Shown: in pieces, positions 5,161 through 64,000 of the stretch
Layout: every line of letters starts with the position of its first letter
Numbering within the stretch: position 1 is the first letter of the stretch
Made by a program: the position numbers and the translations under genes
From: an uncultured Actinomycetota bacterium
GTDB lineage: Bacteria; Actinomycetota; Actinomycetes; S36-B12
Length of the DNA: 64,000 bases
Direction of reading: 5' to 3'
NCBI GenBank assembly: GCA_963749905.1
Contig: CAVVOF010000003.1
Span: forward strand, 642,806-706,805
Notes under the pieces: model-generated
Database searches by the model: none
What the model was told of the DNA's origin: nothing
Seen by the model: the letters and a program-made list of their open reading frames with translations, nothing else

Positions 5161-5219
5161 ATCCTGCCTCCTGCCCACGCTAGCCTGCACCCCGGACGCG
5201 GCGTCGGCGATGGAGGATC

Positions 5220-6506: not shown

Positions 6507-6526
6507 ACGCGGACGCGCGATGTCGT

Positions 6527-7576: not shown

Positions 7577-8220
7577 AGCCAGGCAAACCCTTGGAGGAGG
7601 TGCTGACGTCTCTGGACGCCTGGTCGGAGCCGACCACCCGCACGCATCAGGACCGACAGGTCCACATCGTGTGCACTGGCCCACGGATGCGCCAGTCAGG
7701 ACGGGACCCTGCGACAAGGGCTGGTCCCCGTTGTTGCAGGAGTGGGCCGAGCCGGTCACCGGCGGCTGGGTCTGCACCCGCAGCATCCCCCGTCCCTCGG
7801 ATAACACCACGCTCGACCGGTACTCCGGCGCGCACGTTGGGTCGCGGCACCGTCACGTCGGCATCGTCTTTGCCCGCGAGGCGGTGCGCTCGCCATGTCC
7901 ACGAACTCCCTTGTCCCGCATCGCATCGTGACGGACTGGACAGACCTCTCGACGGGCCGCATATACCTGCAAGGACGCTGTTGCCGACCTGGCTTCGTTC
8001 CGAAATCGGAAGGTCGGCTGATCGACCCGTCCCCGGCCGCCACCAGGGGGGCCAACGAGGCACCAGTTGAAAGCTGGGATCGTCGCCGCTATCGACCGCG
8101 CCGCATGGGCAGCCGGATCAGGTAGCTGCGCACAGGCACCCCAAGGGCCTTCTGCGCCATGGCTCGCACTGGCGTGAGCGCCCCGGCGCCAACGAGACGA
8201 AGAGATGCAGCTGGAGGACC

Positions 8221-8883
8221 ATGAGTTCGGTGGATGACGAGGACGGCGCGGCGGGCACGGCCAGGCTCGAGCAGACTGAGCTGCTGACGAAGCGGGGCCT
8301 GCGCTTGGCCCAGTTCACAATCGGCTACAACGTCTTCGAAGGCATCGTGGCGGTCACCGCGGGCTTGGCCGCCGGTCTGGTGTCCCTCGTAGGTTTCGGG
8401 CTCGACTCCGGCATCGAGTCGATCTCCGCGATCATCGTCGCGTTCCGGCTCAGCGCCCGGCTGCGCGACGGGCACACAGACGAGGCCAAGGAGCGCGTCG
8501 CGCTGCGCGGCGTCGCGATCACGTTCTTCCTCCTAGCCGCCTACGTGACCATCGTGGGTGTCCGCGACCTGCTTGCCGGAGAGACGCCGGACACCTCGAC
8601 TGTCGGCATCGTGATCCTGGTGCTGTCCCTGATCGTCATGCCGTGGCTGGCGTGGGCCAAGACCCGCGTCGGACGGTCACTGGGCAACGACCGGCTGATC
8701 CTTGCCGACGCCGCGGAGACCAGGATCTGCGTTCTACTCAGCGCCTCGACACTGCTGGGGCTCGTCGCCTTCACGCTGACCGGACAGGCCTGGCTGGACC
8801 CGGTCGCCGGGTTCGTCATCGCTGTCTTCGCGATCCGCGAAGGCCGTGAGGCCTGGGAAGGCGAGCTCGTCGAGGAGGACTGA
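8221..8883 (+). CDS. cation-efflux (CDF-type, transmembrane domain only) transporter
   Basis: 220 aa, six TM segments, with GYNVFEGIVAVTAGL...GFGLDSGIES and LADAAETRICVLLS motifs. ATG with GGAGGA RBS. Confidence 0.75.
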   Translation: MSSVDDEDGAAGTARLEQTELLTKRGLRLAQFTIGYNVFEGIVAVTAGLAAGLVSLVGFGLDSGIESISAIIVAFRLSARLRDGHTDEAKERVALRGVAITFFLLAAYVTIVGVRDLLAGETPDTSTVGIVILVLSLIVMPWLAWAKTRVGRSLGNDRLILADAAETRICVLLSASTLLGLVAFTLTGQAWLDPVAGFVIAVFAIREGREAWEGELVEED

Positions 8884-8911
8884 CCGCTTCCTGGAACGGG
8901 ACCGGCTCCTG

Positions 8912-9601
8912 CTACGGCAGCACGAAGTCGAAGGTCGCCTCCATGGAGTCGTCGGACTGCTGGGTGACCGTGACGAGCATGGCGTCGCTGAAGATTCCGT
9001 CACTGTCGTTCTGCGGGACGTCCGGGAAGTAGAGCTGGGTGGTGTGGACCACGCCATCGGGACCGGTCACTTTCACGTGGATGTGCTCCGTCCGGCTCGG
9101 GTAGAGGCCGGGGATGACCGTCCGGAGCGTGTACCGCCCCTCCTCGTCAGTGGTCTGTGTGCCGCGCAGGTCGAAGCCCGAGTTGTCGTACACGCCGGCT
9201 CCGTCCGCCTGCCAGAAGTCAAGGACGGCTCCGGCCACCGGCGAGCACTCCGCATCGAGAACCTGCCCGGTCAGTGTCAGCGGAATCCCGACGGTGGACG
9301 CATCGCTGAGATCGGTCCGCTCGGGGGCACCCGGCGTGTAGTACGGGCCTTCGGTCTGCTCCACCAGCGCGTCCTGGCACGCCATGGCCCGACCGACCGA
9401 GCCGGCGCTCGCAGGCGCGCCACCCGTAAGGGCGGTCTCCTCGGGTGTGGGCGCGACATCGATATCTGCCTCGGTGACCGCCGGTGACGCCACGAGCCCA
9501 GGGGCCGAGGACTCCGTCTGCGTGGCGGTACCCACGCACGCGGACAAGGCTCCGGCAGCCGCAAGGCCGACGATGGCGATCAGCACGCGTCGATGGGTCA
9601 T
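8912..9601 (-). CDS. intradiol ring-cleavage dioxygenase-like lipoprotein
   Basis: Lipobox signal MTHRRVLIAIVGLAAAGALSAC. GRYTLRTVIPGLYPSRTEHIHVKV is the dioxygenase beta-sandwich signature. Confidence 0.75.
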   Translation of the reverse strand: MTHRRVLIAIVGLAAAGALSACVGTATQTESSAPGLVASPAVTEADIDVAPTPEETALTGGAPASAGSVGRAMACQDALVEQTEGPYYTPGAPERTDLSDASTVGIPLTLTGQVLDAECSPVAGAVLDFWQADGAGVYDNSGFDLRGTQTTDEEGRYTLRTVIPGLYPSRTEHIHVKVTGPDGVVHTTQLYFPDVPQNDSDGIFSDAMLVTVTQQSDDSMEATFDFVLP

Positions 9602-9909
9602 GGACCGATCCTGCGTCGTGACGTGGCGTTTCGCCAAACGGCGTCGACCATGGGCTGGACCACCCCGCGTGCCGAACCGCTGCTATGGCGGTCGCTTCAC
9701 GAGTTCTCCCGACGCAGGTGGCGAAACCCGTCCCGCCGGTGGATGCCGCTAGTCGGACTGCCGACCGCCGGCACGGGAACGCCGAAATCGCAGCGGATCG
9801 TCGTCGCCGGTCAGGCTGCGACGCAGCTGGACGGCCTCGGTGTCATCGTCGTTCGGAAGCACGGCGGCAGAGCATCCGGCTGAGATCGACGGGTCATCCG
9901 AGAAATTGC

Positions 9910-9938
9910 TTGACTTCTAGTAATTAGACTTCTAATCT
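9910..9938 (+). promoter_or_regulatory. sigma-70-like promoter (TTGACT - 17 nt - TAATCT) in an AT-rich island
   Basis: TTGACT at 9910-9915, a 17-nt spacer carrying a direct repeat of GACTTCTA, and TAATCT at 9933-9938. It lies 58 nt upstream of the 9996 start. Confidence 0.4.
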
Positions 9939-9995
9939 TCTTCCATGGGACACGGCGACGGGCCGATAGGATCCCGCTACTTGAAGGAGAATCAC

Positions 9996-10271
9996 ATGAC
10001 CACCACCGCCCTGAAGACGACGGTCGCGGACTTCGCCAGCTGGAAGTCCGTGTTCGACAGCACCGTGAATCTGCGCCGCCGGCACGGAGCCACCGGGCAC
10101 CGCGTTCTGAACAACGGCAACGACGTCCTGGTCCTAGTTGACTTCCCCGACGAGGCGTCGGCACGCGCGCTCGCGTCCGATCCCGACATTCGGGAGGGCA
10201 TGAAGCGGTCCGGAATCCAGGGCGCACCTGATCTCCTCGTGTGGGCATCCTCCGAAGAGGTCCAGTACTGA
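9996..10271 (+). CDS. small hypothetical protein (about 91 aa)
   Basis: ATG preceded by GAAGGAGA, with high third-position GC. First gene of an apparent operon with the MarR gene. Confidence 0.6.
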   Translation: MTTTALKTTVADFASWKSVFDSTVNLRRRHGATGHRVLNNGNDVLVLVDFPDEASARALASDPDIREGMKRSGIQGAPDLLVWASSEEVQY

Positions 10272-10393
10272 GCGCGAAGCGACCCGAGCCGAGACGGGGC
10301 CCCAAAGGTCGGGGCCCCGTCTCGCGCGCGTCCGAAACCGACCCCTTCCTGCAGGAGTTCCCGCACGGGAGCAAGTCGGCTGGCGCGGCACTC

Positions 10394-10852
10394 ATGGGCC
10401 TGGCGCGGCTCACCACACTCATCAGCGACGTGTTCGATCGCGGAGTCCACCGTCCCGGCCTGTCCACCACCGGCCGTCAGGCGCTCGCCGTCCTGGATGG
10501 TGCAGGACGGCCGCTTTCGCCCACTGAGATAGCCGAACGACTGCTGCTCACGACGGCCTCGATCACGTCACTGCTCAATACCCTCGAACGTCGCGGCTGG
10601 GTGCTTCGCGAAGCGGATGCACGCGATCGGCGCAAGCAGCTGATCAGCCTCACCGAGGACGGACAGCGGCTCGTGGACGACATCCTTCCGCGGATCGTTG
10701 CCCTGCAAGCCGCCATCATGCAGGACGTGCCGGAGGACGACCGCCAGGATCTGCAGCGCATCCTTGACACCATTCGCACCACGGCAAGCTCCCTTGACGC
10801 TGAGGAGGTCGCCGCGTCCGCGCCGCCGCGCGGCAAGCGGAAGCGGTCCTGA
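10394..10852 (+). CDS. MarR-family transcriptional regulator
   Basis: LSTTGRQALAVLDGAGRPLSPTEIAERLLLTTASITSLLNTLERRGWVLREADARDRRKQLISLTEDG is a winged-HTH MarR signature. The start is uncertain. Confidence 0.85.
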   Translation: MGLARLTTLISDVFDRGVHRPGLSTTGRQALAVLDGAGRPLSPTEIAERLLLTTASITSLLNTLERRGWVLREADARDRRKQLISLTEDGQRLVDDILPRIVALQAAIMQDVPEDDRQDLQRILDTIRTTASSLDAEEVAASAPPRGKRKRS

Positions 10853-10881
10853 CGTCGGCCCGTGGACCGGTGCACCGGCTC

Positions 10882-11259
10882 TCAGCCCCGGTAGTCGAGC
10901 ACCTGCTCGGGCAGTGACATGCCCTCCGCCAGGTCCATCCCGTGCACCGCGATGAGGTGGGTCCGGAACCACACGTCGAACGGCTCGGCGGACGTAGCGA
11001 GTCCGTGCAGCGCGGTGGGCAGGTCGGGCGACTCGATGAGCACGACCGCGAAGTCCCCGACGGGCGTGCTCTGGATCCAGACGGCCTCTCGGGTGATGCC
11101 GTGCCGCCGGCGCGACGCCACGTGGTCGTCCCGGCGGGTGCCTTCTCCGCAGGAGAGCATCTCCTCGCGGTCCACGTCGGTCGTGCCGGGGAGCAGAGGA
11201 GCGGCGAAGCAGACGGCCTGGGTCGCGGTGGTCGTCGGCGAGCTGATGTCGATGGTCAT
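10882..11259 (-). CDS. hypothetical protein (125 aa)
   Basis: ATG at 11259 preceded by CAGGAGGA. Coding-like codon bias. No family recognised. Confidence 0.55.
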   Translation of the reverse strand: MTIDISSPTTTATQAVCFAAPLLPGTTDVDREEMLSCGEGTRRDDHVASRRRHGITREAVWIQSTPVGDFAVVLIESPDLPTALHGLATSAEPFDVWFRTHLIAVHGMDLAEGMSLPEQVLDYRG

Positions 11260-49346: not shown

Positions 49347-49436
49347 GGCTGGATTGTGTCGAAGGACGGCACGCGACCGCCCGGCCGCGGGTCACCCTGC
49401 GCGGCGCGTCCCTGGTTCGGCCCTAGGGTTCCGAGC

Positions 49437-50237
49437 GTGAGGCAGACGAAGGCTCAGGTTGCGGGCGATGTCGCCGTCGGCGGCGGCGTCGGCGTGTTCT
49501 CGGGCGCCTTCGGAGTCGGCGGCGGACTGATGCTCGTCCCCTACCTGGTCCTGGTCCGGCACCTGCCACAGAAGACCGCGCAGGCCACCTCCCTGGTGAT
49601 GGTCGCGATGGCCGCGTTGGCCGGGGCGGCTCGGTACACCCTCGGCGACTCGGTGGCCTGGCTGCCGGCCCTCGTCATCACGGTCGGCGGACTGGTCGGT
49701 GCCTATGCGGGTGCCCACATCGTTCAGCGCTCGAGGAACGCCGTGCTCCAGGCACTGTTCGGCGCCCTGGTGGTGATCGCCGGGGTGCGCATGCTGTGGC
49801 CCCAGGCCCCGACGTCCGCCTCGGCTGCGAACCTGCCGGAGCTCACCGTCACCACAATGGCCGCGTATGTCGCCGCCGGGCTGGGGATGGGGCTGCTCTC
49901 GGCGCTCTTCGGCATCGGCGGCGGGATCCTGCTCGTCCCGGTGCTCGTCGCCGCGTTCGGCTTCAGTCAGCAGCTCGCCGCCGGCACCTCGTTGGCCGTC
50001 ATGGTGCCCATCTCCATCGTCGGCGCGATCCGGCTGACCAAGCCCGGACTCACCGACTGGCCACAGGGCTTCCAGTTCGGTCTCGGCGCGATCGTCGGTG
50101 CGGTGGTGGGTGCATCGATCGCGTTGGCGGTGAGCGGCTCTGCGTTGCGGATCGGCTTCGCGGTCCTGATGTTCATCGTCGGCGGACGGATGGCGTGGAC
50201 GGCGATGCGAGCGGCCCGGCCCGGGCAGGAGCCCTGA
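49437..50237 (+). CDS. TauE/SafE-family sulfite/anion exporter
   Basis: FGVGGGLMLVPYLV and FGIGGGILLVPVLV repeats. The start is uncertain (GTG 49437, or the ORF start at 49356). Confidence 0.8.
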   Translation: MRQTKAQVAGDVAVGGGVGVFSGAFGVGGGLMLVPYLVLVRHLPQKTAQATSLVMVAMAALAGAARYTLGDSVAWLPALVITVGGLVGAYAGAHIVQRSRNAVLQALFGALVVIAGVRMLWPQAPTSASAANLPELTVTTMAAYVAAGLGMGLLSALFGIGGGILLVPVLVAAFGFSQQLAAGTSLAVMVPISIVGAIRLTKPGLTDWPQGFQFGLGAIVGAVVGASIALAVSGSALRIGFAVLMFIVGGRMAWTAMRAARPGQEP

Positions 50238-51410
50238 CTAGGGCAGGGGCAGCCAGGCGACGCGACCACCGGCGGGCGTGACGCCCTCGGGCACGATCGC
50301 GAACCCGCGCGACTGCGCCAGGCCGCGGAGCATCGCCGACCCGCCATAGGGCGACAGCGTGAAGCAGCCGTCCTGCAGCACGCCAGCGATCAGCCGGGTG
50401 TGCCCGCTGGGCGCACGAAGCTCCTCCACGGTCGGCACCCGTGACAGCTGCGCGGCCGTGCGTCCGAGCATGGCGTCGATCACGGGAGCGGCCAGGGTGG
50501 CGAAGCCCACGACAGCGGAATGCGGGTTGCCTGGCAGGCCCACCAACGGAACGGAACCAGCGCCCACCGGAAGGCTGGCCAGCAGCATCGGGTGCCCGGG
50601 CCGTACCGCCACGTGATCCACGACCAGCTGACCACCGAGAGCGTCGATCGCACCGCGTACGTGATCGCGCGGGCCCTCAGCCGTTCCACCGGTCGTGATG
50701 ATGAGGTCGGCTCGTCCCGCGGCCAGCGCGAACGCTGCGATGACGTCGTCGAGTCGATCCCCCACCCGACGATGCTCGTGGGCCTGCGCCCCCGAACGGT
50801 CCAGCCACCCGGGCAGTTGCGGTCCCAGCGAGTCGCGGACCCGACCGTCGCGGGGGATGCCGCGCTCCTGCAGCTCGTCGCCGAGGAGGATGAGTTCGAC
50901 ACGCGGTCGTCGCGTGACCGCCACGGTGTCGTGCCCGGTGGCGGCGAGGAATCCGGACATCGCCGGGGTGACCTCGGTGCCCGCCAGGGCGATCAGCTCG
51001 CCGGTGCGGCACTCCTCCCCGCGTCGACGGATGTCCCCGCCGTCCGCGACGGGACCGGTGACGACGCCGTCCGCGACGTCGGCCGCCTCCCACCGCAGGA
51101 CACCGCGGGTGCCCTCGGGGACCACTGCCCCGGTCGCGATGCGTGCGCAGGTGCCCGGCTCGAGTCGACCGGGCAGCGGACTCCCCGCCGCGATGTCGCC
51201 CACGATCCGCCAGGGTCCGTCACCTGCCAGCGCCCAGCCATCCATCGCCGAGGTGTCGAAGTTGGGCAGGTCGCACAGGGCCAGCACATCCTCCGCGAGG
51301 ACGCGCCGATCGCTCGCGGCCACGTCCACGGACTCGGGCTCGAGCACTCGTCCCAGGCTTGCGGCCGCGGAATGCGCGGCCCACCAGTCCGCCTCGTGCA
51401 GGGCCGTCAT
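50238..51410 (-). CDS. moeA: molybdopterin molybdotransferase MoeA
   Basis: FDTSAMDGWA, IITTGGTAEGPRDHV and VRPGHPMLL...GLPGNPHSA motifs. Confidence 0.9.
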   Translation of the reverse strand: MTALHEADWWAAHSAAASLGRVLEPESVDVAASDRRVLAEDVLALCDLPNFDTSAMDGWALAGDGPWRIVGDIAAGSPLPGRLEPGTCARIATGAVVPEGTRGVLRWEAADVADGVVTGPVADGGDIRRRGEECRTGELIALAGTEVTPAMSGFLAATGHDTVAVTRRPRVELILLGDELQERGIPRDGRVRDSLGPQLPGWLDRSGAQAHEHRRVGDRLDDVIAAFALAAGRADLIITTGGTAEGPRDHVRGAIDALGGQLVVDHVAVRPGHPMLLASLPVGAGSVPLVGLPGNPHSAVVGFATLAAPVIDAMLGRTAAQLSRVPTVEELRAPSGHTRLIAGVLQDGCFTLSPYGGSAMLRGLAQSRGFAIVPEGVTPAGGRVAWLPLP

Positions 51411-51458
51411 GCCGCTGACCTCGATCCGCCTACGCGGGCGGCGCCCGCACCCGTGAGA

Positions 51459-52424
51459 CTACTTCGGGGAATCCGCGGGCTCCGAGTCACGCTTGATCTC
51501 GCCGCCCGTCGTATCGAAGTCGGCGAGCGGCTCCTTGGCCGGCCAGCGGATCAGCAGGGTGATGCCCACGACGAGGATGATCACGCCGGCGATGACCTCG
51601 ATCAGCTGGATGGCCGAGCCCTGCGCGAACTCGACGATGCTCCCGCCGACCTCCTGGATCAGGATGAAGAACGCCATGACGAGCACGAACCACCCGAAGC
51701 CCTTGCGGAGCCGATCCGGATGCACCCGGCCGGAGATCACCGCGCCGATCACCGCACCGATCACCGCGAACACGGTGACCAGGAGCGTGACCGTCCAGTT
51801 GATCTCGGTCTCCGGGTTCATCGCCACCAGTCCACTGGGGCCGCCGAAGGAGACCGCGTAGCCGACGAAGCCGGCGCTGGACTTCATCATGACGACGAGG
51901 AGTGACGTGCCGACCGCCGCCTGCATCGGCAGGCCGCCGAGCAGCACCAGCGCTGGCACCACGAGGAAGCCGCCGCCCGCGCCCACGATCCCCGTCACCA
52001 GGCCGACGATGAATCCGTCGAGCAGGATGCGGAAGAGCGGCAGTCCGGCGTGCGCCTTGCCCTCGACCTTCTTCCGCCCGCGGATCATCGCGATCGCGGT
52101 GGCGCCCATCATCACGGCGAACGCGGCCAGCAGGAGGGCGCCCGGCAGCCGGGCACCGATCTGTCCGCCCGTGAAGGCACCCACCATGCCGGCCGCACCG
52201 AAGATCAGGCCGGTCCGCCAACGGACCCGGCCGGCACGCGCATGCTGGATCAACCCGAAAGCCGACGTCACCGCCACCACGAACAGGCTGGCCGCGATCG
52301 CCTGCTTGGGATCGAAGTCCATGACGTACACGAGCATCGGCGTCGTGAGGATGGATCCGCCGCCGCCGAGCAGGCCGACGGCCATGCCGATCACGATGGA
52401 GAGCGCGGCGGCGAGCCAGAGCAT
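51459..52424 (-). CDS. TauE/SafE-family exporter
   Basis: 321 aa with [16 protein letters not shown] and [15 protein letters not shown] repeats. Confidence 0.85.
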
Positions 52425-52466
52425 CAGTTCAGTCCGTTCGGGTCGAGGGGAAGTGGCAGGGGACGC

Positions 52467-55361
52467 CTACTGCTGGGGGAACTGGCCGTCGACGTAGTAG
52501 GCCTGCAGCTGCGGCATGACGGGGCGCATCATGAACATCGGTCGACGCAGGCCGTCCTTGTTCGGTCCGGGACGCGTCCACGACATCCACTCGCGGTAGA
52601 CCTCGCGCGACTTGGCCGTGTCGACGACGACGTCGCCGTACTTGTCCTCCTCGTGCGCCTTCTCGACCTTGACCCGCTGATGCCAGCAGTGCATTCCGGA
52701 CTGGGTGTCCGGATGGACGGGGAAGGCCAGGTTCTGGTGAACGCCCGGGTCCTCCCAGGTGATGCGCATCGAGTCGGCGTCGTCGCTCACGAACGGGCGC
52801 ACGCCCTCCTTGTAGCGCAGGCGCCATCGCCCGTCGTCCATCTTGCTGACGTCGACCTTGCCGGACACCCAGCGGCTGCCGGCGTCGTCCGTCGTGCGCC
52901 ACCGCCCCATGTGGTGGGACAGCGCGATCACGCCGGGCTTGATGCCCTCGGTCGCCCAGATGCGGGCCACGAAATAGCCGATGTCCGTGTTGACGCGGAC
53001 CATGTCGCCGGTCTGCAGGCCGAGGCGCTTGGCGTCGACGTTGTTCATCCACACCGGGTGCTTGTTGCTGATCTCGTTCAGGTACTTGGCGTTGCCCGAG
53101 CGCGTGTGGATGAGGGTCGGCAGCCGGAACGTCGGCACCAGCGCCATCTCGCCCTTGCTGTGATCCATGTCGTGGTGGATGACATGGCTCGGGATGTAGC
53201 AGGGGATCGCGTACTCCGGCCAGCCGAACTCGGCGATCGACGGAGAGTAGAGCTCGAGCTTGCGCGACGGCGTGAGCCACCCGGCCACCTCGGAACCGTC
53301 CTCCAGCACGACGCCCACGGCGCCGGCCTCGCCGACCAGCGGCTTCTGGGTCTCCCCCGTCACCGGCTTGCGCAGGACGCCGTTCTCGTCGGCGACCGCT
53401 CCCTCGCGCTCGGCAGGGGTGAGCGGGCGCTCGTCCTGGCGGTAGAGGTTGTTGACGATCTCCACCGCGCCGTACTTGCGCATGTACTCGAGCGGGGTCA
53501 GGCCCTCCTTCGCCGCCTTGTCGGGCAGACCGGGCACCTGGTTCTCGAAGATCCAGCCGTAGTACTCGTCCACGGTGACCTTCTTGCCGGGCTCACCCGG
53601 AGTCTCGAAGTACTTGCGGATGCCGAGGGAGCCGTCGGGATCGATTCGCCAGGACAACTCGATCCAGAACTCGGTCTCCTCCCAGACCTCCCCCGGGTTG
53701 GACTCCCGGGTGTCGGTGATGTTCTCGCCCATCTTGTTGAGCGCCACCCGACGGACCGGCTGACGGAAGCCGAGCCACTTGCCCGCGTACTGCTCGTACG
53801 ACTGCGTGTCGTGGCGCTCCGTGCTGTGACCGAAGGGCAGCACGTAGTCGGCGAAGATCGCGGTCTCGTTCCACGTCGGCGTCATCGCCACGTGGCAGCC
53901 GACCAGGTTCTCGTCGGACAGCGCCTCGATCCACGTGAAGCCGTCCGGGTTGGTCCACACGGGGTTGTAGACGCGCGAGAAGTAGGTGTCGATCTTGCCT
54001 CGGCCGTCAAGCAGGAAGTGCGGAAGCAGGATGGACAGCTCGTTGGTGGACATCGGGAACTCGGACGGCCAGAGCAGCTCGTTCCACGAGTTGTGACCGC
54101 CCGGCATGCTCGGGCCGTGCGGGATGAACTTGTTCCAGCCGTTGGGGCTGGTGCCGCCCTTCTCGCCCACACTGCCGGTGAGGACGGTCAGGAAGAACAG
54201 CGCGCGGGCGACGGCCCAGCCGCCGAGGTTGCCGGCGGTGGCGGAGCGCCACGTGTGCGCAGCGAGCTTGCGGTCGCAGCCCGCGACGATCTCGGCCACC
54301 CGCTCGATCTGCGCGGCCGGCACGCGGCACTCGTCGGCCGCGAACTCGAACGTGTACTGCTGGTAGTCCGCGGTGAGTGCAGCCTTGAAGGCGTCGAAGT
54401 CCTTCGGGTCCTGGTCGGGGTGCAGGGCCTCCATGTAGGTGGACCAGTTCACCCAGCGGCGCAGGTAGTCCCACTGCACAGCGTCGGTGCGCATGAGGTA
54501 CGCGGCGATCGCCAGCAGCATCGCTGCCTCGGTGCCCGGCCAGGGCGACACCCACTCGTCGGCGTGCGATGCGGTGTTCGACAGCCGCGGATCGACGACG
54601 ACCAGCCGGGCGCCGCCGTGGACCTTGGCGTCCATGATGCGCTGGGCGTGCGGGTTGAAGTAGTGACCCGACTCGAGGTGAGCGGACAGCAGCAGGATCA
54701 CCTTCGCGTTGGCGTGGTCCGGCGATGGGCGGTCGTAGCCGCCCCACACCGAGTAACCGAAGCGGGCACCGCCTGAGCAGATGTTCGTGTGCGTGTTGTT
54801 GCCGTCGACGCCCCAGGTGAGCAGGACGCGCTCGATGAAGCCGTCCTCACCGTGGCGGCCGACGTGGTACATGACCTCGTTGCGACGGTCCTCCTGGATG
54901 GCCTTGCGGATCCGGCCGGCGATGTCGTCCATCGCGTCGTCCCAGGACACCCGCTCGAACTTCGCCTCGCCGCGCTTGCCGGCCCGCTTCAGCGGGTACA
55001 GGATGCGCTCCGGGTCGGAGGTCTGGTTGATCGTGGCCGGGCCCTTGGCGCAGTTGCGACCGCGCGAACCGGGATGCGCCGGGTTGCCCTCGACCTTCAC
55101 GACCTCCTTGGTCTCCTTGTCCACGTACGCCAGCAGGCCGCACGCCGACTCGCAGTTGAAGCAGGTGGTGGGGACGAGCATGTAGTGCTTCTCGACCTTG
55201 CGGGGGTGCGCCTTGGCGTCGTACATGACGACGTCGTCCCAGGTGTCGACCGGCGGGTAGTTGGAGACCGTCTCCCGGATCCGAAGGCCGTGGGCCTCCG
55301 GTCGATCCGCGGCGACCGGAGTCGCGGCGGGCCCGCGGGAGGGAGTGGAGCTCTTGGACAT
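52467..55361 (-). CDS. molybdopterin (bis-MGD) oxidoreductase catalytic subunit, Psr/Phs/Soe-type, no Tat signal
   Basis: 964 aa with the N-terminal FeS motif [11 protein letters not shown]...GRNCAKG. There is no twin-arginine motif in the first 60 aa. The ORF is intact over 2.9 kb. Confidence 0.9.
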
Positions 55362-55401
55362 CTGCTGGCGTCCTTTCCTGGACGGTGCGTCGGGGACGGT
55401 C

Positions 55402-56944
55402 TTAGGAGAGCGGCGGATCCTGGCCAGCCATCACGAAGACCCGCTCGTGCAGCACCAGGGCGGGCTGGACGATCAGGCCGGCGATGATCGCCAGGCCGCT
55501 GGCCGCGCCGAGGCCGGTGGCCAGGGCGAGCGCGCCGCCGATGAGCGGACAGCAGAACGGACCCGAACCAGAAGGTCTTCGAGTAGCGACCGCTGGTGAT
55601 CGCGTGCGCGGCCACTTCAGCGTTCCGGGTCGAGTGCTTGCCGCCGAACTCCACCGCGGTGATGAGCAGGTGCGCCACCACGCCGGCGACGAGCGCCCAC
55701 GACAGCCAGGTGACGGTGGCATCGTCGGGCTGGAAGATCGGCGACAGCAGGAGCAGCACGCCCGCGCCGACCATGACGGCCTGCGCCTGCAGGTGCCAGA
55801 ACAGGACCGGCGACTGCCAGAGATCCCGGCCCTCTGCCTGCCCGAAGAGGAAGGCGGTGTAGCCCGCCAGCATCACGGCGGACGGGATGGCGAGCCAGGC
55901 CAGGACCGTCAGGGCGGACGCGAAGTCGCCCATCTCGAGCTCGGTGGCCACGCCGGCGAGGAACCACAGCCCCCCGACGATGGCGGCGATGGTCAGGAAG
56001 ATGCCGCCGATCGCCAGCCACGATCTCCTGTTGATCATCGCCGGGTTGAAGAGGAACCAGAACCGGTCCGGGCGCTTGAGGTCCCAGATCAGGAGAACCG
56101 CGGTGACGAGCAGGAAGAGCTCGGTCAGGAAGGGCGCCACCGCGGTGACGAGCAGGGTTCGATCTGTCGTCAGCAGGAGCAGCAGGGCGCCGATGAGGAG
56201 GGTGCCCGCCGCGATGGACTTCGTCCACAGGTAGGTCCAGACCTTCCAGCCCCACGGCCGCGGGTGCGCGGTGTTGTAGGTCAGCCGGGCGCCGGACACC
56301 GGGTCGCCCGGCAGCTCGGCGGCGGTCTCGAGGCGCAGCGGGTCCGCGTTGGCCCACAGGTAGGTGCCCTCGACCGGCGCCGCGAGCGGATCCAGCACGG
56401 TCTGGTCCGCGCCGACGTAGTACACGTTCGGCCGGGTGCCCTGCTCGGGCGTCCGCACGTTGATCGGCGTGATGCTCAGGAACTTGCTGATACCGCTTGT
56501 CGGGTCGTCGATGTCGCCCATCCAGATGGACTGGGTGGGGCACACCTGGACGCACGCCGGTTCGAGGCCGACGTCGATGCGGTGCGCGCAGAAGTTGCAC
56601 TTCGCGGCGGTATGGGTGTCGTCATCGATGTAGATCGCGTCGTACGGACAGGCCTGCATGCACGTCTTGCAGCCGATGCATCGCTCATTGTCGAAGTCCA
56701 CGATGCCGTCGTCGCGGATGAACAACGCCTGCGTCGGGCATGCCTTGACGCAGGGCGCGTTCGTGCAGTGATTGCACCGCATGACGCCCATCTCGCGGGT
56801 CGTGGTCGGGTACTCGCCCTTCTCCACGTACTTGACCCACGTACGGAACTTGCCGACTGGAACGTTGTGCTCGGTCTTGCAGGCGACGGTGCAGGCGTGG
56901 CAGCCGATGCACGTCCTCTGATCAATGGCGAAGCCATATCGCAC
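55402..56944 (-). pseudogene. 4Fe-4S ferredoxin subunit fused to NrfD/PsrC-type membrane anchor, frameshifted near 55541-55552
   Basis: N-terminal CIGCHACTVACK, CNHCTNAPCVKACP and CIGCKTCMQACP clusters, then about 8 TM helices. The last ~50 aa (LIGGALALATGLGAASGLAIIAGLIVQPALVLHERVFVMAGQDPPLS*) are in the next frame. 1543 nt is 3n+1. Confidence 0.8.
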
Positions 56945-56950
56945 TGAGGA

Positions 56951-57181
56951 TCACTTCTTCCTGATGTAGAACTTCAGAACGTTGCCCTCTTCACTCGATT
57001 CAAGCAGTTCGTTTCCGGTTTGGCTCGCCCACGCGGGGATGTCCGAGCGGGCGCCGGCGTCAGTGGCCATGACGAGCATGACGTCGCCGGTGGTGAGCTG
57101 CTTCGCGGCCTTCGCCGTCATGAGCACGGGCATCGGGCAGCTCTTGCCGGTCGCGTCGACCGTGGTCGTGACGTTCTCCAT
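56951..57181 (-). CDS. tusA: TusA/SirA-family sulfurtransferase
   Basis: 76 aa with the active-site motif DATGKSCPMPVL. AGGAGG RBS. Confidence 0.85.
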   Translation of the reverse strand: MENVTTTVDATGKSCPMPVLMTAKAAKQLTTGDVMLVMATDAGARSDIPAWASQTGNELLESSEEGNVLKFYIRKK

Positions 57182-57210
57182 TGTTCCTCCTGGTGGATGG
57201 TGAGGCCGAG

Positions 57211-57708
57211 CTAGATGAACAGGCTGATCTGGGACTTGGACATCTTTCCGAGGGCGGTGGCGGCACCGACCGGCTCACCGAGGTCGGGCAGCATCTGGTC
57301 GGCGCGGATGCCGAGGAGGTCCATGGTCATCTGACAGGGCCAGAGCTTGACGCCCATCTCCTGGCACATCTCGAACAGGTCCTCCGGCGGCAGCAGGCCG
57401 TTCTTGTTGGCCACCTTGCGCATCATCCAGCGCCCCATGCCGCCCATGTTCATCTTGGAGAGCTTGGCCTTCTTGAAGCCGGGCGGGTTCATCCCGCCCA
57501 GCATCTTGGTCATCGCGTCGTGGCCGATCTTCTCCCCGTCGCGCACGAGGGGGAAGAGCCCCCAGAAGGTGAAGAAGACGGTGACGTCCATTCCGCTGGC
57601 GGCCGCGGTCGAACTCAGGATCATCGTCGGCCACAGCTTGTCGAGATCTCCGCTGAACGCGATGATCGTCATGGACTCTTCTGGCGACTCAGGCATCGCG
57701 TCTGACAT
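57211..57708 (-). CDS. DsrE/DsrF-like family protein
   Basis: MTIIAFSGDLDKLWPTMILSSTAAASGMDVTVFFTFWGL...KLWPCQMTMDL. ATG at 57708 after GGAAGGGG. Confidence 0.8.
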   Translation of the reverse strand: MSDAMPESPEESMTIIAFSGDLDKLWPTMILSSTAAASGMDVTVFFTFWGLFPLVRDGEKIGHDAMTKMLGGMNPPGFKKAKLSKMNMGGMGRWMMRKVANKNGLLPPEDLFEMCQEMGVKLWPCQMTMDLLGIRADQMLPDLGEPVGAATALGKMSKSQISLFI

Positions 57709-57758
57709 GGGAACCCCTTCCGGCTCTCGGAACCGTAGAGGCTTGAGCACTTCCAATC

Positions 57759-57782
57759 AAGGGTTTTCCGCGAAAAACCCTT
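57759..57782. promoter_or_regulatory. 24-bp near-perfect palindrome AAGGGTTTTCCGCGAAAAACCCTT
   Basis: 11 of 12 symmetric pairs, flanked by TTCCAATC / TTCCCAATC direct repeats. It lies in the 184-nt divergent region between the dsrE-like and rhodanese-MBL genes. Confidence 0.45.
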
Positions 57783-57818
57783 CCCAATCCTCAATTTGTG
57801 CATTAGCGTCCGCGAATA

Positions 57819-57855
57819 TGTCGATCTGCGCATCGACAGATGGATACCCATCCAT
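57819..57855. promoter_or_regulatory. two adjacent small palindromes TGTCGAT-N6-ATCGACA and ATGGAT-N4-ATCCAT
   Basis: At 57819-57838 and 57840-57855, in the lower-GC divergent promoter region. The second ends 37 nt upstream of the ATG at 57893. Confidence 0.35.
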
Positions 57856-57892
57856 TCCGATAGGAAAGCAGTTCCGCCGACCAGGAGGCACG

Positions 57893-59029
57893 ATGGCACG
57901 AGTAATCACGTCCCGTGATCTGTACGACGAGATCGAGGCCGGCACGGTGCCGTTCATCCTCGATGTCCGCAACCAGGACGAGTTCGCCGCCTGGCAGATC
58001 GAGGGGCCGAAGCCGGTCGAGATGAAGAACCTGCCCATCTGGATGGCCGTGGAGCAGATCGAGGACCTGGCGCAGGAGATGCCGGACGGCTCGGTGGTCG
58101 TATGCGCTCACGGCAACGGCAGCGACCTGCTCATCGACATGCTCGAGGACGAGGGCAAGTCCGTGCGGAACCTGGACGGCGGCACAGCGGCCTGGGCTGA
58201 GCTCCTGGTGCCTCGGCGGCTGCCCGACCTGCCAGACGGACTGATCGCCTGGCAGGTGCAGCGTCCGTCGAAGGCGTGCATCTCCTACGTGATCGGCGTG
58301 CCCGGGCGCAACGCCATCGTCGTGGACCCCGCGCGCTTCCCCCAGCCGTACATCGATCTCGCGGCGAGCGAGGGCATGACGATCACGCACGTCATCGACA
58401 CCCATGTGCACGCGGACCACATCACCGGCGGCCCGGAGCTGGCCGAGGCGGCCGGCGCCACCTACCACGTCCCGATCGAGGACACCGGCAAGGCGCCCAC
58501 CCCCTTCGCCAACGAGCCACTGGCCGACGGAGCGGAGATCGACCTCGGCGACGCCACGGTCCATGTGCTGTCCATCAAGATGCCGGGCCACACGCCTGGA
58601 TCGACGTGCATCAACCTGCCCGGCAGCTTCCTGCTCACCGGCGACACCGTCTTCGTGCGCGGCGTGGGGCGACCAGACCTCACGGGCCGGGCGGAGGAAC
58701 TGGCGACCGAGCTCTACCACACCGTGCATGAGCGGCTCCAGCCGCTCGATCCGGCCACCATGGTGCTGCCCGCGCACTGGTCGTTCCCGAACGAGATCGG
58801 CGAGGACGGCCTGGTGCGCACGGACCTCGGGACCGTGTTCGAGAACACCCTGCTCAGCGAGGCGGACATGGCCAAGTTCATCCAGGAGGTCATCACCTCG
58901 CTGCCCAGTGCGCCGGACACCTACGACACCATCCGACTGGTGAACTCGGGCCGCAAGGACGCCACCGCAGACGAGATCGAGTTCCTCGAGATCGGCAAGA
59001 ACCAGTGCGCGGCCTCCACCACCACCTGA
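57893..59029 (+). CDS. rhodanese domain fused to MBL-fold persulfide dioxygenase-like hydrolase
   Basis: N-terminal rhodanese with VVVCAHGNGS. The MBL motif is VIDTHVHADHITGG, with MPGHTPGS. AGGAGG RBS. Confidence 0.85.
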   Translation: MARVITSRDLYDEIEAGTVPFILDVRNQDEFAAWQIEGPKPVEMKNLPIWMAVEQIEDLAQEMPDGSVVVCAHGNGSDLLIDMLEDEGKSVRNLDGGTAAWAELLVPRRLPDLPDGLIAWQVQRPSKACISYVIGVPGRNAIVVDPARFPQPYIDLAASEGMTITHVIDTHVHADHITGGPELAEAAGATYHVPIEDTGKAPTPFANEPLADGAEIDLGDATVHVLSIKMPGHTPGSTCINLPGSFLLTGDTVFVRGVGRPDLTGRAEELATELYHTVHERLQPLDPATMVLPAHWSFPNEIGEDGLVRTDLGTVFENTLLSEADMAKFIQEVITSLPSAPDTYDTIRLVNSGRKDATADEIEFLEIGKNQCAASTTT

Positions 59030-59103
59030 CGAGTGGGGGCGCGCACGTCCCCGGCTGGACAACGTAGGGTCATGGCGGACCTGAGCAGCGGAAGGGAGGG
59101 CCA

Positions 59104-59448
59104 GTGGACCGAGAGACGTCGCTCGAACTGCACGAGCTGCACGCACGGATCTGCAAGGCGATCGCCGATCCGAAGCGACTGCTGATCATCAGCGAACTCC
59201 GCGACGGTCCCAAGACCGTGGGCGAGCTGGCTGTCGACCTCGAGCTGTCCCAGTCCAACACCAGCCAGCACCTGGCGATCCTGCGCGAGCGGGGGCTGGT
59301 GGAGGCCACCAAGGACGGGTCCAGCGTGTACTACTCGCTCACCAGCAAGAAGGTGGTCAAGGCGATCGACCTGCTCCGGGAGTTCATGGTCGACCAGCTC
59401 GGCGACCAGAGCCGCCTGGGTCGGGCGGCCACGCGCGCAGCGCGATAG
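59104..59448 (+). CDS. ArsR/SmtB-family transcriptional regulator
   Basis: ICKAIADPKRLLIISELRDGPKTVGELAVDLELSQSNTSQHLAILRERGLV. Only one Cys (C17). Confidence 0.85.
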   Translation: MDRETSLELHELHARICKAIADPKRLLIISELRDGPKTVGELAVDLELSQSNTSQHLAILRERGLVEATKDGSSVYYSLTSKKVVKAIDLLREFMVDQLGDQSRLGRAATRAAR

Positions 59449-61427: not shown

Positions 61428-62375
61428 ATGAATGTCGGGCTCATGAGGCGAGAAGGGTCCTGTGGATGCCAGACTCTCGCTGTGGCGAAGAAGCACAAGG
61501 ATCCGCATCGGCGATCGAGTGACCTGCCCAAGCGCATGCCCAAGCCCCTGTACGAGAAGGAGCTCTACCGGCTGCAAGCCGAGCTGGTGAAGCTCCAGGA
61601 GTGGGTGCGGCTCGAGGGCGTGCGCGTGGTCATCCTGTTCGAGGGACGGGACGCAGCCGGAAAGGGCTCGACGATCAAGCGGGTGACCGAGTACCTCAAC
61701 CCGCGCGTCGCCAGCATCGTCGCGCTCCCGGCTCCCACCGAACGCCAGCGCACGCAGTGGTACTTCCAGCGGTATGTCGAGCACCTGCCGGCCGCCGGCG
61801 AGATGCGGCTGTTCGACCGGTCCTGGTACAACCGCGCCGGCGTCGAGCGGGTCATGGGGTTCTGCACGCCCGACGAGTACCGACGGTTCCTGCACCAGAC
61901 GCCCATCTTCGAGCGACTGCTCGTCGAGGACGGCATCATCCTGCGCAAGTACTGGTTCAGCGTCAGTGACGCCGAGCAGGAGCGCCGGTTCGCTTCGCGC
62001 CTCCAGGACCCGATGCGCCAGTGGAAGCTCTCCCCGATGGACCTCGAGTCCATCACGCGGTGGGAGGACTACTCACGCGCCAAGGACGAGATGCTCGTGC
62101 ACACGGACATCCCCGAGGCGCCCTGGTACGTGGTCGAGGCCGACGACAAGCGACGGGCGCGGATCAACATGATCCACCACCTGCTCTCGACCGTCCCGTA
62201 CTACGCGGCCACCCGTGCGCCGCTCGCTCTGCCCACCCGCCCGGCCCCGAAGGGCTACGAACGGCCACCGCGAGAACTCAGCCACTACATCCCGGACCAC
62301 GCTGCCACCGTCCTCGGGGAGCCCACACGCACGCCTGACACGCCGTTCAGCGTGGCGCCGCACACCCCGATCTAG
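61428..62375 (+). CDS. ppk2: polyphosphate kinase 2
   Basis: FEGRDAAGKGSTIKRV, FDRSWYNRAGVERVMGF and WKLSPMDLES motifs. The start is ATG 61428 or 61443. Confidence 0.9.
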   Translation: MNVGLMRREGSCGCQTLAVAKKHKDPHRRSSDLPKRMPKPLYEKELYRLQAELVKLQEWVRLEGVRVVILFEGRDAAGKGSTIKRVTEYLNPRVASIVALPAPTERQRTQWYFQRYVEHLPAAGEMRLFDRSWYNRAGVERVMGFCTPDEYRRFLHQTPIFERLLVEDGIILRKYWFSVSDAEQERRFASRLQDPMRQWKLSPMDLESITRWEDYSRAKDEMLVHTDIPEAPWYVVEADDKRRARINMIHHLLSTVPYYAATRAPLALPTRPAPKGYERPPRELSHYIPDHAATVLGEPTRTPDTPFSVAPHTPI

Positions 62376-62396: not shown

Positions 62397-62936
62397 CTAG
62401 TTCCAGCGCTCGCCGGTGATGTCCGTCAGGTGGTGGACCGGGTCGTGGACGATGTAACGGGCGAACGACTCGACGGTGAAGGATGATCCGTCGCCTCGAC
62501 GCCCCGGCCGAGACCACGCATCGTCGGGGACGGCCTCGAGATCCGCAGCGAAGGCCTCGGCCGCACGGACCATCTGCTCCGTGGCGACCGCCGGATCCTG
62601 GTGGTAGTAGTCGTCCTCGATGGCCGCGGCGTCCGGGTCCCAGTTGGCGTACAGAGGATCGTCCTCGGTGAGCATTCGCTCAACCCGCATGCAGGCAAGG
62701 TCGTAGACGTCGCGCACGTGGCAGGTGTACTCGGACGGCGACCACACCGCGGGCCGGGGACGCTCCGTGGGCGCCGAGTGCTCGGCCATCGCCCCCGCCC
62801 AGCGGTCGGCGACCTCGCGGATGATGGCGGACAGCTCTGCGCGATCCGGCGATCGGGTGTCGAAGCCGCACTCGGGACACGCCTCCCCCAGCACCCAGGT
62901 CCAGTCCTTCGTGTCCGGCTCAGGCTGCTCAACCAT
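62397..62936 (-). CDS. DinB-family protein
   Basis: 179 aa from the ATG at 62936, with a C-terminal FARYIVHDPVHHLTDI. The longer ORF-track extension to 63722 is antisense to the SulP gene. Confidence 0.8.
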   Translation of the reverse strand: MVEQPEPDTKDWTWVLGEACPECGFDTRSPDRAELSAIIREVADRWAGAMAEHSAPTERPRPAVWSPSEYTCHVRDVYDLACMRVERMLTEDDPLYANWDPDAAAIEDDYYHQDPAVATEQMVRAAEAFAADLEAVPDDAWSRPGRRGDGSSFTVESFARYIVHDPVHHLTDITGERWN

Positions 62937-62972
62937 CCGCCAAATGTAGGTCCTCAGCCCTACCGTGGTGCC

Positions 62973-64000
62973 GTGACGAGCCACATCGGGGTGCAGCGCC
63001 TGCTGCACTATGACCGTCGCGACCTGCGCGGCGACCTGCTCGGAGCAGTCACGGTCACCGCGTATCTCATCCCACAGGTCATGGCCTACTCGGCGCTCGC
63101 CGGCCTCCCCCCGCAGACCGGCCTCGTCGTCATCGTCGTCGCGATGATCATCTACGCGTTGATCGGCTCGTCGCGCCTGCTGTCGGTCGGACCTGAATCC
63201 ACGACCGCACTGATGACCGCAGCGGTGCTGGCGCCGATCGCCGCCGGAAGCGCCTCGCAGTACGCGGGCTACGCGGCGTTGCTGGCGCTGCTGGTCGGCG
63301 GCTTCGCGCTGCTGTCCGGACTGCTCAAGCTCGGATTCATCGGAGACCTGCTCTCGAGGCCGGTGCTCATCGGCTACATGGCCGGCGTCGGCGTGATCAT
63401 GATCACCAGCCAGCTGGAGAAGATCACCGGCGTCGACGTCGCGGGCAACACCTTCCTCGAGGACGTCAGCTCGTTCGCGCGTGGCGTCGCATCGGGCGAC
63501 GGCAACTGGCAGACCCTGGTCCTCGGCCTCAGCGTCGCCGGACTGCTGCTGTTCTTCACGCCGCGGTACCCCAAGCTGCCCGTGCCATTGTTCGTGATGC
63601 TGCTGGCAACGCTCGTCGTGGCGGTCTTCGACCTGGCGCGATTCGGGGTCGAGACGGTCGGAGAGATCTCCATCACCGGACTCCAGCTCGGGCTGCCCGC
63701 GATGGATCTCGACGCCCTGCAATTGCTCCTGCTACCGGCGCTCGGCATCTTCGTCGTCGGGTACACCGACAACGTGCTCACCGCGCGTGCCTTCGCCACC
63801 CGCACCGGTACCAGCGTGCACAACAACCAGGAGTTCCTCGCGATGGGATCCGCGAACGTGGGCTCGGCCCTCGTCGGCGGCTTCCCCGTCAGCTCCAGTG
63901 CCAGCAGGACCGTCATCGCCGAGGCAAGCGGTGCCCGCTCGCAGGTGTATTCGCTGGTGTCCGCAGCGCTCGTCGTCGTCTCCGTCCTGGTGTTCGCCAG
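62973..64000 (+). CDS. SulP-family anion transporter, 5' part (runs off the window)
   Basis: My own translation gives LRGDLLGAVTVTAYLIPQVMAYSALAGLPPQTGL...GPESTTALM...FPVSSSASRTVI, the canonical SulP motifs. It is absent from the ORF track because no stop falls in the window. Confidence 0.85.
   Translation, partial: MTSHIGVQRLLHYDRRDLRGDLLGAVTVTAYLIPQVMAYSALAGLPPQTGLVVIVVAMIIYALIGSSRLLSVGPESTTALMTAAVLAPIAAGSASQYAGYAALLALLVGGFALLSGLLKLGFIGDLLSRPVLIGYMAGVGVIMITSQLEKITGVDVAGNTFLEDVSSFARGVASGDGNWQTLVLGLSVAGLLLFFTPRYPKLPVPLFVMLLATLVVAVFDLARFGVETVGEISITGLQLGLPAMDLDALQLLLLPALGIFVVGYTDNVLTARAFATRTGTSVHNNQEFLAMGSANVGSALVGGFPVSSSASRTVIAEASGARSQVYSLVSAALVVVSVLVFA

Follow-up and report, generated by a model that had tools for sequence, protein, structure and literature searches.

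A cluster of sulfur-related genes built around a two-gene molybdoenzyme lies in a 64,000-nucleotide stretch of DNA (the window; G+C about 70%) from an uncultured Actinomycetota bacterium of a lake, in the lineage S36-B12 (assembly GCA_963749905.1, contig CAVVOF010000003.1, positions 642,806 to 706,805 of the forward strand). Genes were called from a listing of open reading frames (ORFs) together with Pfam and NCBIfam scans, and every gene named in an earlier, model-made reading of the same letters (the initial annotation) was found where that reading had put it (Table 1). An operon on the minus strand leads from a DsrE2-like sulfurtransferase gene through tusA, a gene in which an iron-sulfur (FeS) ferredoxin is fused to an NrfD-type membrane anchor, and the gene of a catalytic subunit with bis-molybdopterin guanine dinucleotide (bis-MGD) domains, to tauE and moeA. 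A gene for a rhodanese fused to a metallo-beta-lactamase (MBL) domain and an arsR gene are transcribed divergently. With five FeS clusters and an NrfD anchor, the two central genes would encode a cytoplasm-facing, quinone-linked molybdoenzyme of uncharacterised lineage. The lineage and its FeS-NrfD fusion appear to be unstudied.

The catalytic subunit has the domain set of the complex iron-sulfur molybdoenzymes, including the N-terminal FeS0 motif (CFNCESAC, residues 67-74, of the form CxxCxxxC) and a protein ligand to Mo, since the Cys of its HTNICSGG motif aligns to the PsrA/ArrA position that we take to be the Mo-ligand Cys of PsrA and ArrA. The four-cluster ferredoxin and the NrfD-type membrane module of such enzymes are supplied by the fusion protein, which begins directly at the first cluster motif (MRYGFAIDQRTCIGCHAC) and has 16 Cys in four CxxCxxCxxxC-type motifs, followed by the NrfD domain. 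Every NCBIfam equivalog cut-off lies above the score of the catalytic subunit. A further motif, (Y/F)PPxExW(D/K), is found at residues ~34-42, about 20-30 residues upstream of the FeS motif, throughout the clade to which the enzyme belongs; it occurs in members with and without a twin-arginine (Tat) signal and is absent from ArxA, SoeA and PhsA.

When the N-termini were read directly, no signal peptide was seen on the catalytic or on the fusion polypeptide. The catalytic N-terminus has neither an RRxFLK motif nor a hydrophobic leader (~23 codons are open upstream), in line with the initial annotation, which had reported the lack of a Tat signal, had placed the enzyme on the cytoplasmic side of the membrane and had suggested a topology prediction for the fused subunit. 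That prediction gave eight helices by hydropathy in the NrfD domain, and all the Lys/Arg residues of its loops fall on the side of the FeS domain (14 versus 0); by the same crude method the periplasmic ArxC gave 3 versus 5 and SoeC 13 versus 3. A single-sequence structure model of the fused subunit (predicted local distance difference test, pLDDT, 43) was used solely as a helix count. A folded, cofactor-loaded four-cluster domain fused to a polytopic protein should moreover be unable to hitch-hike through the Tat system. Because signals are absent, the charge bias is 14 versus 0 and the fusion is incompatible with such hitch-hiking, the FeS domain probably faces the cytoplasm, and the redox subunits would reside there, as had been proposed. 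The orientation of PsrC is opposite to that deduced for the NrfD anchor here.

The cytoplasmic side had been linked in the initial annotation to SoeABC-type sulfite dehydrogenases, and a phylogeny with SoeA, PsrA, PhsA, TtrA and SrdA had been suggested. Similarity searches led neither to a curated SoeA model nor to a named SoeA sequence, the nearest-homologue search giving only relatives at least 68% identical; the plasmid collection had no SoeA-like record, and a search of representatives returned mostly fragments and unnamed clusters. A match in Caballeronia was rejected as SoeA, being a stand-alone enzyme of 732 aa. Chromatiaceae genomes were located with a Chromatium HiPIP query, and four of them were searched with the catalytic subunit. 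Each contained one Tat-less gene of ~975 aa, and in Allochromatium warmingii an FeS and then an NrfD gene come after it, giving an A-B-C locus that fits SoeABC as described (PMC8076601, PMC4378227). In BLASTP the catalytic subunit matches the A. warmingii SoeA with 121 bits and 30% identity over the N-terminal 265 residues only; its match to a Tat-bearing ArxA-like protein of A. humboldtianum reaches 361 bits and runs end to end over 892 residues. The latter protein (898 aa) is encoded in an arx-like cluster of this purple sulfur bacterium (L069, 4800-9138) with FeS, NrfD and TorD-like genes, and the three other Chromatiaceae genomes searched gave no match of comparable strength to it.

In a maximum-likelihood tree of 30 sequences (LG+C20) the proteins from Actinomycetota, Thermomicrobium and Natrinema form a group with 100/100 support, nested in a clade, likewise at 100/100, that also takes in four metagenomic proteins, three with a Tat signal and one without. 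This clade is sister to an Arx-containing clade at 99/97, with SoeA, PhsA and TtrA outside, and the stem of the family itself is long (0.91 substitutions per site). A topology that joins the clade with SoeA is worse by 27.6 log-likelihood units and is rejected (approximately unbiased, AU, test, p = 0.006). The FeS and NrfD modules rank Sulfurovum before Arx, Phs and Soe, in that order, and SoeC gives no match. The best sequence match in the PDB is PsrA (2vpw, E = 2.9e-31), the catalytic subunit reaches 105 bits with the NCBIfam ArrA model, whose cut-off is 1600, and the top Foldseek match is ArrA (6cz7), a ranking that lends weak support only, the catalytic model having a pLDDT of 62. The partial 121-bit match, the separate branch, the AU test and the ranking of the B and C modules together show that the enzyme is not a member of the SoeABC family, so the SoeABC-type label did not survive as a statement of descent; on sequence grounds the enzyme is a separate lineage, sister to the Arx/Arr-type oxyanion oxidoreductases. 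The suggested phylogeny was thus obtained with SoeA, PhsA and TtrA and set the family beside Arx/Arr-like enzymes. A cytoplasmic bSreA/SoeA lineage has been described by Wells et al. 2023 (PMC10100899); our family is separate from SoeA on the tree, which was built without bacterial SreA. The initial annotation had further held that clustering with non-sulfur enzymes would speak against its reading, and this came close to being the case, the nearest characterised clade handling arsenic, but the family forms a separate, long-stemmed clade with a sulfur context throughout.

Resemblance to SoeABC is limited to topology and setting. As in SoeABC of A. vinosum and Aquifex aeolicus (PMC8076601, PMC4378227), the molybdopterin subunit is Tat-less and has an N-terminal FeS motif, the FeS module has four clusters, the NrfD-type anchor is haem-less, the redox subunits appear to face the cytoplasm and the setting is that of sulfur oxidation; the same reaction can only be proposed for the enzyme here. 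In contrast to SoeABC there is no orthology to SoeA, both ArxB and PhsB match better than SoeB does, and instead of three separate genes in the order soeA-soeB-soeC, B and C form one polypeptide encoded upstream of A. With Arx/Arr, the nearest characterised clade, the enzyme shares 30% identity end to end (ArxA-like proteins of Azoarcus KH32C and A. humboldtianum), the Cys ligand and the FeS, NrfD, catalytic gene order of arx clusters. It scores below the ArrA/ArxA family threshold, however, and Arx/Arr enzymes carry Tat signals, face the periplasm, have separate B and C subunits and stand in an arsenic-related context (arxXSR-like regulators, arsB), whereas the context here is sulfur-related. 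PsrABC and PhsABC have the same three-module design with an NrfD or PsrC anchor, but are periplasmic and Tat-dependent, have shorter catalytic subunits (~760 aa) and fall outside the sister group in the tree.

Closer relatives are found in unfused B-C-A homologues from Campylobacterota and metagenomes (those of a Sulfurovum mangrovi plasmid, P0127 and P0166), which share the 100/100 clade, the (Y/F)PPxExW motif and the gene order, but have separate B and C genes, a downstream TorD-type chaperone and an extra FeS protein. P0127, P0166 and P0160 carry twin-arginine signals, and P0127 visibly resembles the S. mangrovi homologue. The relation to these Tat-exported B-C-A enzymes is supported by the tree, while the direction of change is not established by it. 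On the S. mangrovi plasmid (NZ_CP087125.1, L014) the unfused FeS, NrfD and catalytic genes lie at 5114-11025, with the catalytic gene split in two overlapping frames (7031-8044 and 7986-10199) and missing from the gene table of the plasmid.

The core pair, fusion gene then catalytic gene, is also present in Thermomicrobium and haloarchaea, and in an even sample of Actinomycetota the enzyme occurs in 39 of 401 genomes and 31 of 249 genera. The closest catalytic homologues (91-94% identical) come from Nanopelagicales-type metagenome-assembled genomes (MAGs) that have the same gene order and an intact fusion gene of 513 aa. The order is also the same in Rhodococcus, at 71% protein identity, and the conservation over these two distances indicates that the arrangement is not due to chance. 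In R. opacus and in R. jostii RHA1 (plasmid pRHL3) an Mrp/NBP35 gene comes after the series dsrE-tusA-fusion (506 aa)-catalytic; a rhodanese-MBL gene points the other way, and more ArsR and MBL genes are close by. The copy on pRHL3 (L012, 1-16800) is flanked by genes for three rhodanese/MBL proteins, two ArsR proteins, a thioredoxin, two DUF202 proteins and an MFS transporter, and one of the ArsR proteins is long enough for a fused rhodanese domain, as annotated in the R. opacus homologue; the region has the look of a sulfur-stress island carried by a mobilizable linear plasmid. Thermomicrobium roseum has a gene for a CsoR-family regulator ahead of the fusion and catalytic genes, with Cys at two sensing positions and no His (x-C-x-C), a fingerprint that we take to be CstR-like. 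Natrinema combines the fusion (607 aa) and the catalytic gene with an Mrp gene. Selenocysteine was ruled out in the relatives, in which the in-frame TGA is the stop codon.

For a wider view of the neighbourhood, 19-kb regions of 20 diverse Actinomycetota homologues were combined with the window and the Rhodococcus, Thermomicrobium and Natrinema loci; the ORFs of these 24 loci were clustered and representatives checked against Pfam and the PDB. The fusion gene adjoins the catalytic gene in all 24, so the fusion that the initial annotation had listed as atypical does exist but is no local oddity. An ArsR or ArsR-rhodanese gene is present in 17 loci, an MBL gene of the persulfide dioxygenase (PDO) type in at least 10, a SulP permease with STAS domain in 10, a DsrE2-like gene in nine, and tusA in at least five. 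A type II sulfide:quinone oxidoreductase (SQR; human SQOR homologue in the PDB, E = 8e-103) and a NarJ/TorD-like chaperone are each encoded in seven. In several loci (e.g. L119, L123, L122, L111, L112) SulP lies just past a NarJ-like gene that adjoins the catalytic gene. No arsB/acr3- or arsC-like cluster recurred in the 24 loci, and no recurrent neighbour families appeared besides sulfur-related and transporter genes.

A role of the enzyme as a substitute for SQR was ruled out, type II SQR being found beside it in those seven loci and an SQR-like gene in its own genome. The latter (contig C4, 748303-749878) encodes a flavoprotein of 415 aa with 30% identity to a type II SQR homologue and is directly followed by a 104-aa ORF resembling a DsrC/TusE-family protein. 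The persulfide on which the cluster acts may come from this C4 protein.

Among the accessory proteins of the window, the rhodanese-MBL fusion has the rhodanese Cys (CAHGNGS) and an HxHxDH motif. Its best PDB matches are 3tp9, 4ysb, CstB (3r2u), ETHE1 (4chl) and PRF (5ve3), ahead of the glyoxalase II entries, so the description of the MBL part as persulfide dioxygenase-like stands. Judged by MBL fold, metal motif and this ranking, the protein is a probable persulfide dioxygenase of the ETHE1/CstB/PRF type. TusA combines the fold with the CPxP cysteine of a sulfur carrier, scoring 82.6 bits in Pfam against a cut-off of 28.6, and 55.8 bits with the NCBIfam TusA model, below its cut-off of 78. The DsrE2-like protein belongs to the wider PF13686 family and not to the DsrE2 equivalog (NCBIfam 80.6 bits versus 210); its ORF reaches position 57756 with an upstream TTG start, and its homologues have 163-169 aa. 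The single Cys noted earlier in the ArsR protein was confirmed. It lies in HARICKA, where the helix ahead of the DNA-binding motif starts (HAR(I/L/V)CKA), and is conserved in seven of seven cluster-linked homologues, none of which has a second Cys. With only one Cys conserved in these homologues, the protein is not a Cys-pair sensor of the BigR/SqrR type; its NCBIfam BigR score is 55.6 bits against a cut-off of 155.

The cst operon of Staphylococcus aureus and the BigR operon of Xylella and Agrobacterium likewise combine a repressor, which responds to persulfide or sulfite, with a PDO-rhodanese fusion, TusA/DsrE-type carriers and a TauE exporter; these operons have no molybdoenzyme.

As to the remaining layout (Table 1), tusA ends 6 nt before the start of the fusion gene. 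The operon's tauE gene directly follows the catalytic gene, a position kept in the relatives L001, L006 and L007, and moeA is the final gene, as in L001 and L006. The second tauE is convergent on moeA and abuts its stop. In the spacer between the divergent genes, presumed to hold an ArsR-controlled promoter pair, the composition dips to 0.62-0.63 GC. Further along, some 3 kb from arsR and separated from it by a PPK2 gene (61428-62375), a gene for a SulP-family sulfate permease (62601-64000, plus strand) runs past the end of the window.

Table 1. Features of the cluster, with positions counted from the first letter of the whole stretch.
Feature	Position	Strand	Basis
second tauE (TauE/SafE-family anion exporter)	49356..50237	+	Pfam PF01925, E = 1e-46
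moeA, molybdopterin molybdotransferase	50238..51410	-	Pfam MoeA_N, MoCF_biosynth, MoeA_C
tauE, TauE/SafE-family anion exporter	51459..52424	-	Pfam PF01925, E = 8.5e-49
catalytic subunit, bis-MGD, 964 aa	52467..55361	-	Pfam Molybdop_Fe4S4 PF04879, Molybdopterin PF00384, Molydop_binding PF01568
FeS + NrfD fusion gene, two frames in the assembly	55402..56944	-	Pfam Fer4_11, NrfD
extra-base site (+1 frame switch) in the NrfD-coding part	55541..55552	.	alignment with L006, L007, L008, L001
tusA	56951..57181	-	Pfam PF01206, E = 1.8e-23; CPxP cysteine (GKSCPMP)
DsrE2-like sulfurtransferase gene, first in operon	57211..57708	-	Pfam PF13686, E = 3e-45
divergent intergenic spacer, dsrE-like / rhodanese-PDO	57709..57892	.	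gene boundaries inferred
rhodanese-MBL fusion, 378 aa	57893..59029	+	Pfam Rhodanese, Lactamase_B
arsR, ArsR/SmtB-family regulator	59104..59448	+	Pfam HTH_5

This gene content suggests a unit for the detoxification or oxidation of persulfide and sulfite, in which the enzyme would be an independently evolved sulfite:menaquinone oxidoreductase, a reading to which we give about an even chance. The step from sulfite to sulfate is assigned to the molybdoenzyme because SQR, PDO and an anion exporter are present and only this step is left unfilled. The rhodanese domain, TusA and the DsrE2-like protein would carry sulfane sulfur, which the persulfide dioxygenase domain would oxidise to sulfite. The molybdoenzyme would then oxidise sulfite to sulfate by oxo-transfer, its electrons passing via five FeS clusters to menaquinone in the NrfD domain, and the anion would be exported by TauE here or by SulP in many relatives. 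The single-Cys ArsR protein could repress the divergent promoters until modified by a sulfur species. Oxidation of sulfite to sulfate is a two-electron oxo-transfer on a pyramidal oxyanion and would in this respect parallel the arsenite oxidation of the sister clade. The sulfite-oxidising role given in the initial annotation is still the best functional guess, but for an analogue of SoeABC and not for a member of that family; that the enzyme is such a functional analogue, of independent origin, seems to us evenly poised between right and wrong.

Several points weigh against this assignment. The nearest characterised relatives act on arsenic and not on sulfur. Free sulfite needs neither TusA nor DsrE, yet both are encoded directly upstream in the same operon, and TauE is annotated as a sulfite exporter, which would remove the proposed substrate and not the product. 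The SoeA used for comparison is that of A. warmingii, whose sister species A. vinosum is the characterised one, and it was recognised by its size, its lack of a Tat signal and its A-B-C synteny and not through an accession number, while the tree was built without Aquifex SreA/SoeA, SrdA, Thermus PsrA and Shewanella ArrA. In the collection of papers searched, none was found on the enzyme family, the cluster or the FeS-NrfD fusion.

The position of the carrier genes raises the alternative, which we consider rather unlikely, that the enzyme acts on carrier-bound sulfur and not on free sulfite, TusA and the DsrE2-like protein delivering a persulfide or thiosulfonate to the Mo site, where it would be oxidised, or reductively cleaved in a Psr-like manner, with quinone as partner. 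The enzyme genes are directly preceded, within one operon, by dsrE2-like and tusA genes here as well as in Rhodococcus, L106 and L108, the carrier genes adjoin them in L111, L112 and L122, and the PDB entry nearest in sequence is a polysulfide reductase, PsrA. The DsrE2-like protein is nevertheless encoded in only nine of the 24 loci and TusA in at least five, and the carriers look accessory because neither turns up within ~7 kb of the molybdoenzyme in the loci of Thermomicrobium and Natrinema. Conversion of sulfane sulfur to sulfite moreover takes six electrons and three oxygen atoms, which is not a single Mo oxo-transfer, and in most cases the step is already covered by a PDO. A bolder form of the same thought, and an unlikely one in our view, is that the cluster constitutes a third cytoplasmic sulfur-oxidation route beside reverse Dsr and sHdr, with the enzyme as its catalytic core and not as a sulfite dehydrogenase. 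That TusA and the DsrE2-like protein would in such a route present protein-bound sulfane sulfur or thiosulfonate to the Mo site, with electrons flowing to menaquinone via the fused anchor, seems no less doubtful.

PDO-rhodanese fusions such as CstB and PRF yield thiosulfate, and a cytoplasmic enzyme converting thiosulfate or tetrathionate, fed by thiosulfate that the rhodanese forms from sulfite and persulfide, could on this account be envisaged. The best NCBIfam match of the FeS domain is TtrB (203 bits) and the second-best of the catalytic subunit is PhsA, but both scores are far under the cut-offs (416 for TtrB, 694 for PhsA), TtrA and PhsA lie outside the sister group in the tree, and the gene context is without any thiosulfate-specific pointer, so that we regard this as quite improbable. 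Oxidation or reduction of a non-sulfur oxyanion (arsenite, selenite or tellurite), with sulfur genes as neighbours for some other reason, would suit a sister clade that holds ArxA and a regulator of the ArsR/SmtB family. It appears very improbable, as arsenic genes of the kinds looked for are lacking from the 24 loci, sulfur genes are neighbours across deep divergences, the ArxA-type regulatory genes that lie beside the Azoarcus enzyme are absent here, and arsenate made in the cytoplasm would be expected to be harmful.

Cytoplasmic, quinone-coupled sulfite oxidation is now credited to SoeABC, and metagenomic surveys score it by SoeABC markers. If the enzyme is indeed a sulfite:menaquinone oxidoreductase, a capacity for sulfite and sulfide detoxification is missed in about a tenth of the sampled Actinomycetota genomes, including the abundant freshwater Nanopelagicales, and also in Thermomicrobium, in haloarchaea and in soil genera such as Rhodococcus and Nocardioides. 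In evolutionary terms the family would also be a clear case, with a periplasmic, Tat-exported form that has separate B, C and A subunits set against a cytoplasm-facing form in which the signal is lost, the charge bias of the anchor is opposite and B is fused to C. Fusion of B to C would be possible only once export has been abandoned. The question of function is directly testable in R. jostii RHA1, which has the cluster on pRHL3, with RHA1_RS43840 and RS43835 as the two enzyme genes.

In the assembly the fusion gene is interrupted. Its minus-strand frame shifts by +1 at ~55547-55552, and DNA alignment with the four relatives named in Table 1 shows exactly one extra base in the window, in agreement with the place of the frameshift given in the initial annotation. 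Downstream of the switch the frame still encodes the conserved C-terminus (...ERVFVMAGQDPPLS), and intact fusion homologues have 513 and 506 aa. Same-strand frame switches were then scored by codon log-likelihoods over the whole genome (3.28 Mb, 7 contigs), which gave 302 candidates, 218 of the +1 and 84 of the +2 type, while a control scan of 440 kb of loci from other high-GC genomes gave 25 per Mb, split 5 to 6. Switches of the +1 type thus amount to 66 per Mb in the genome versus 11 per Mb in the control, an approximately six-fold enrichment and an excess of ~180, some of them in ordinary housekeeping-type genes. Systematic single-base insertion errors in the assembly are the most economical reading of these numbers, which is a statistical verdict.

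Since the four relatives are without the extra base and +1 switches are in such excess in this assembly, the extra base is probably an assembly error and the fusion gene intact in the organism. A programmed +1 frameshift was ruled out, as the four relatives, one of them with a catalytic subunit 94% identical, are uninterrupted. A genuine frameshift with a non-functional complex, which the initial annotation had named as an outcome that would overturn its reading, is decidedly unlikely. The assembly does contain the extra base, outside any homopolymer, and in principle this could mark the fusion gene as a pseudogene; against this, no other gene of the cluster is broken, close relatives with an intact fusion gene have catalytic subunits up to 94% identical to the one here, and both the preserved C-terminus and the genome-wide excess of +1 switches speak for an error. 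By eye, three more genes of the window are broken by +1 switches, namely a TetR regulator gene (~13039), a gene for a Zn-dependent dehydrogenase or quinone oxidoreductase (~25289) and one for a luciferase-like F420-type oxidoreductase (~44661).

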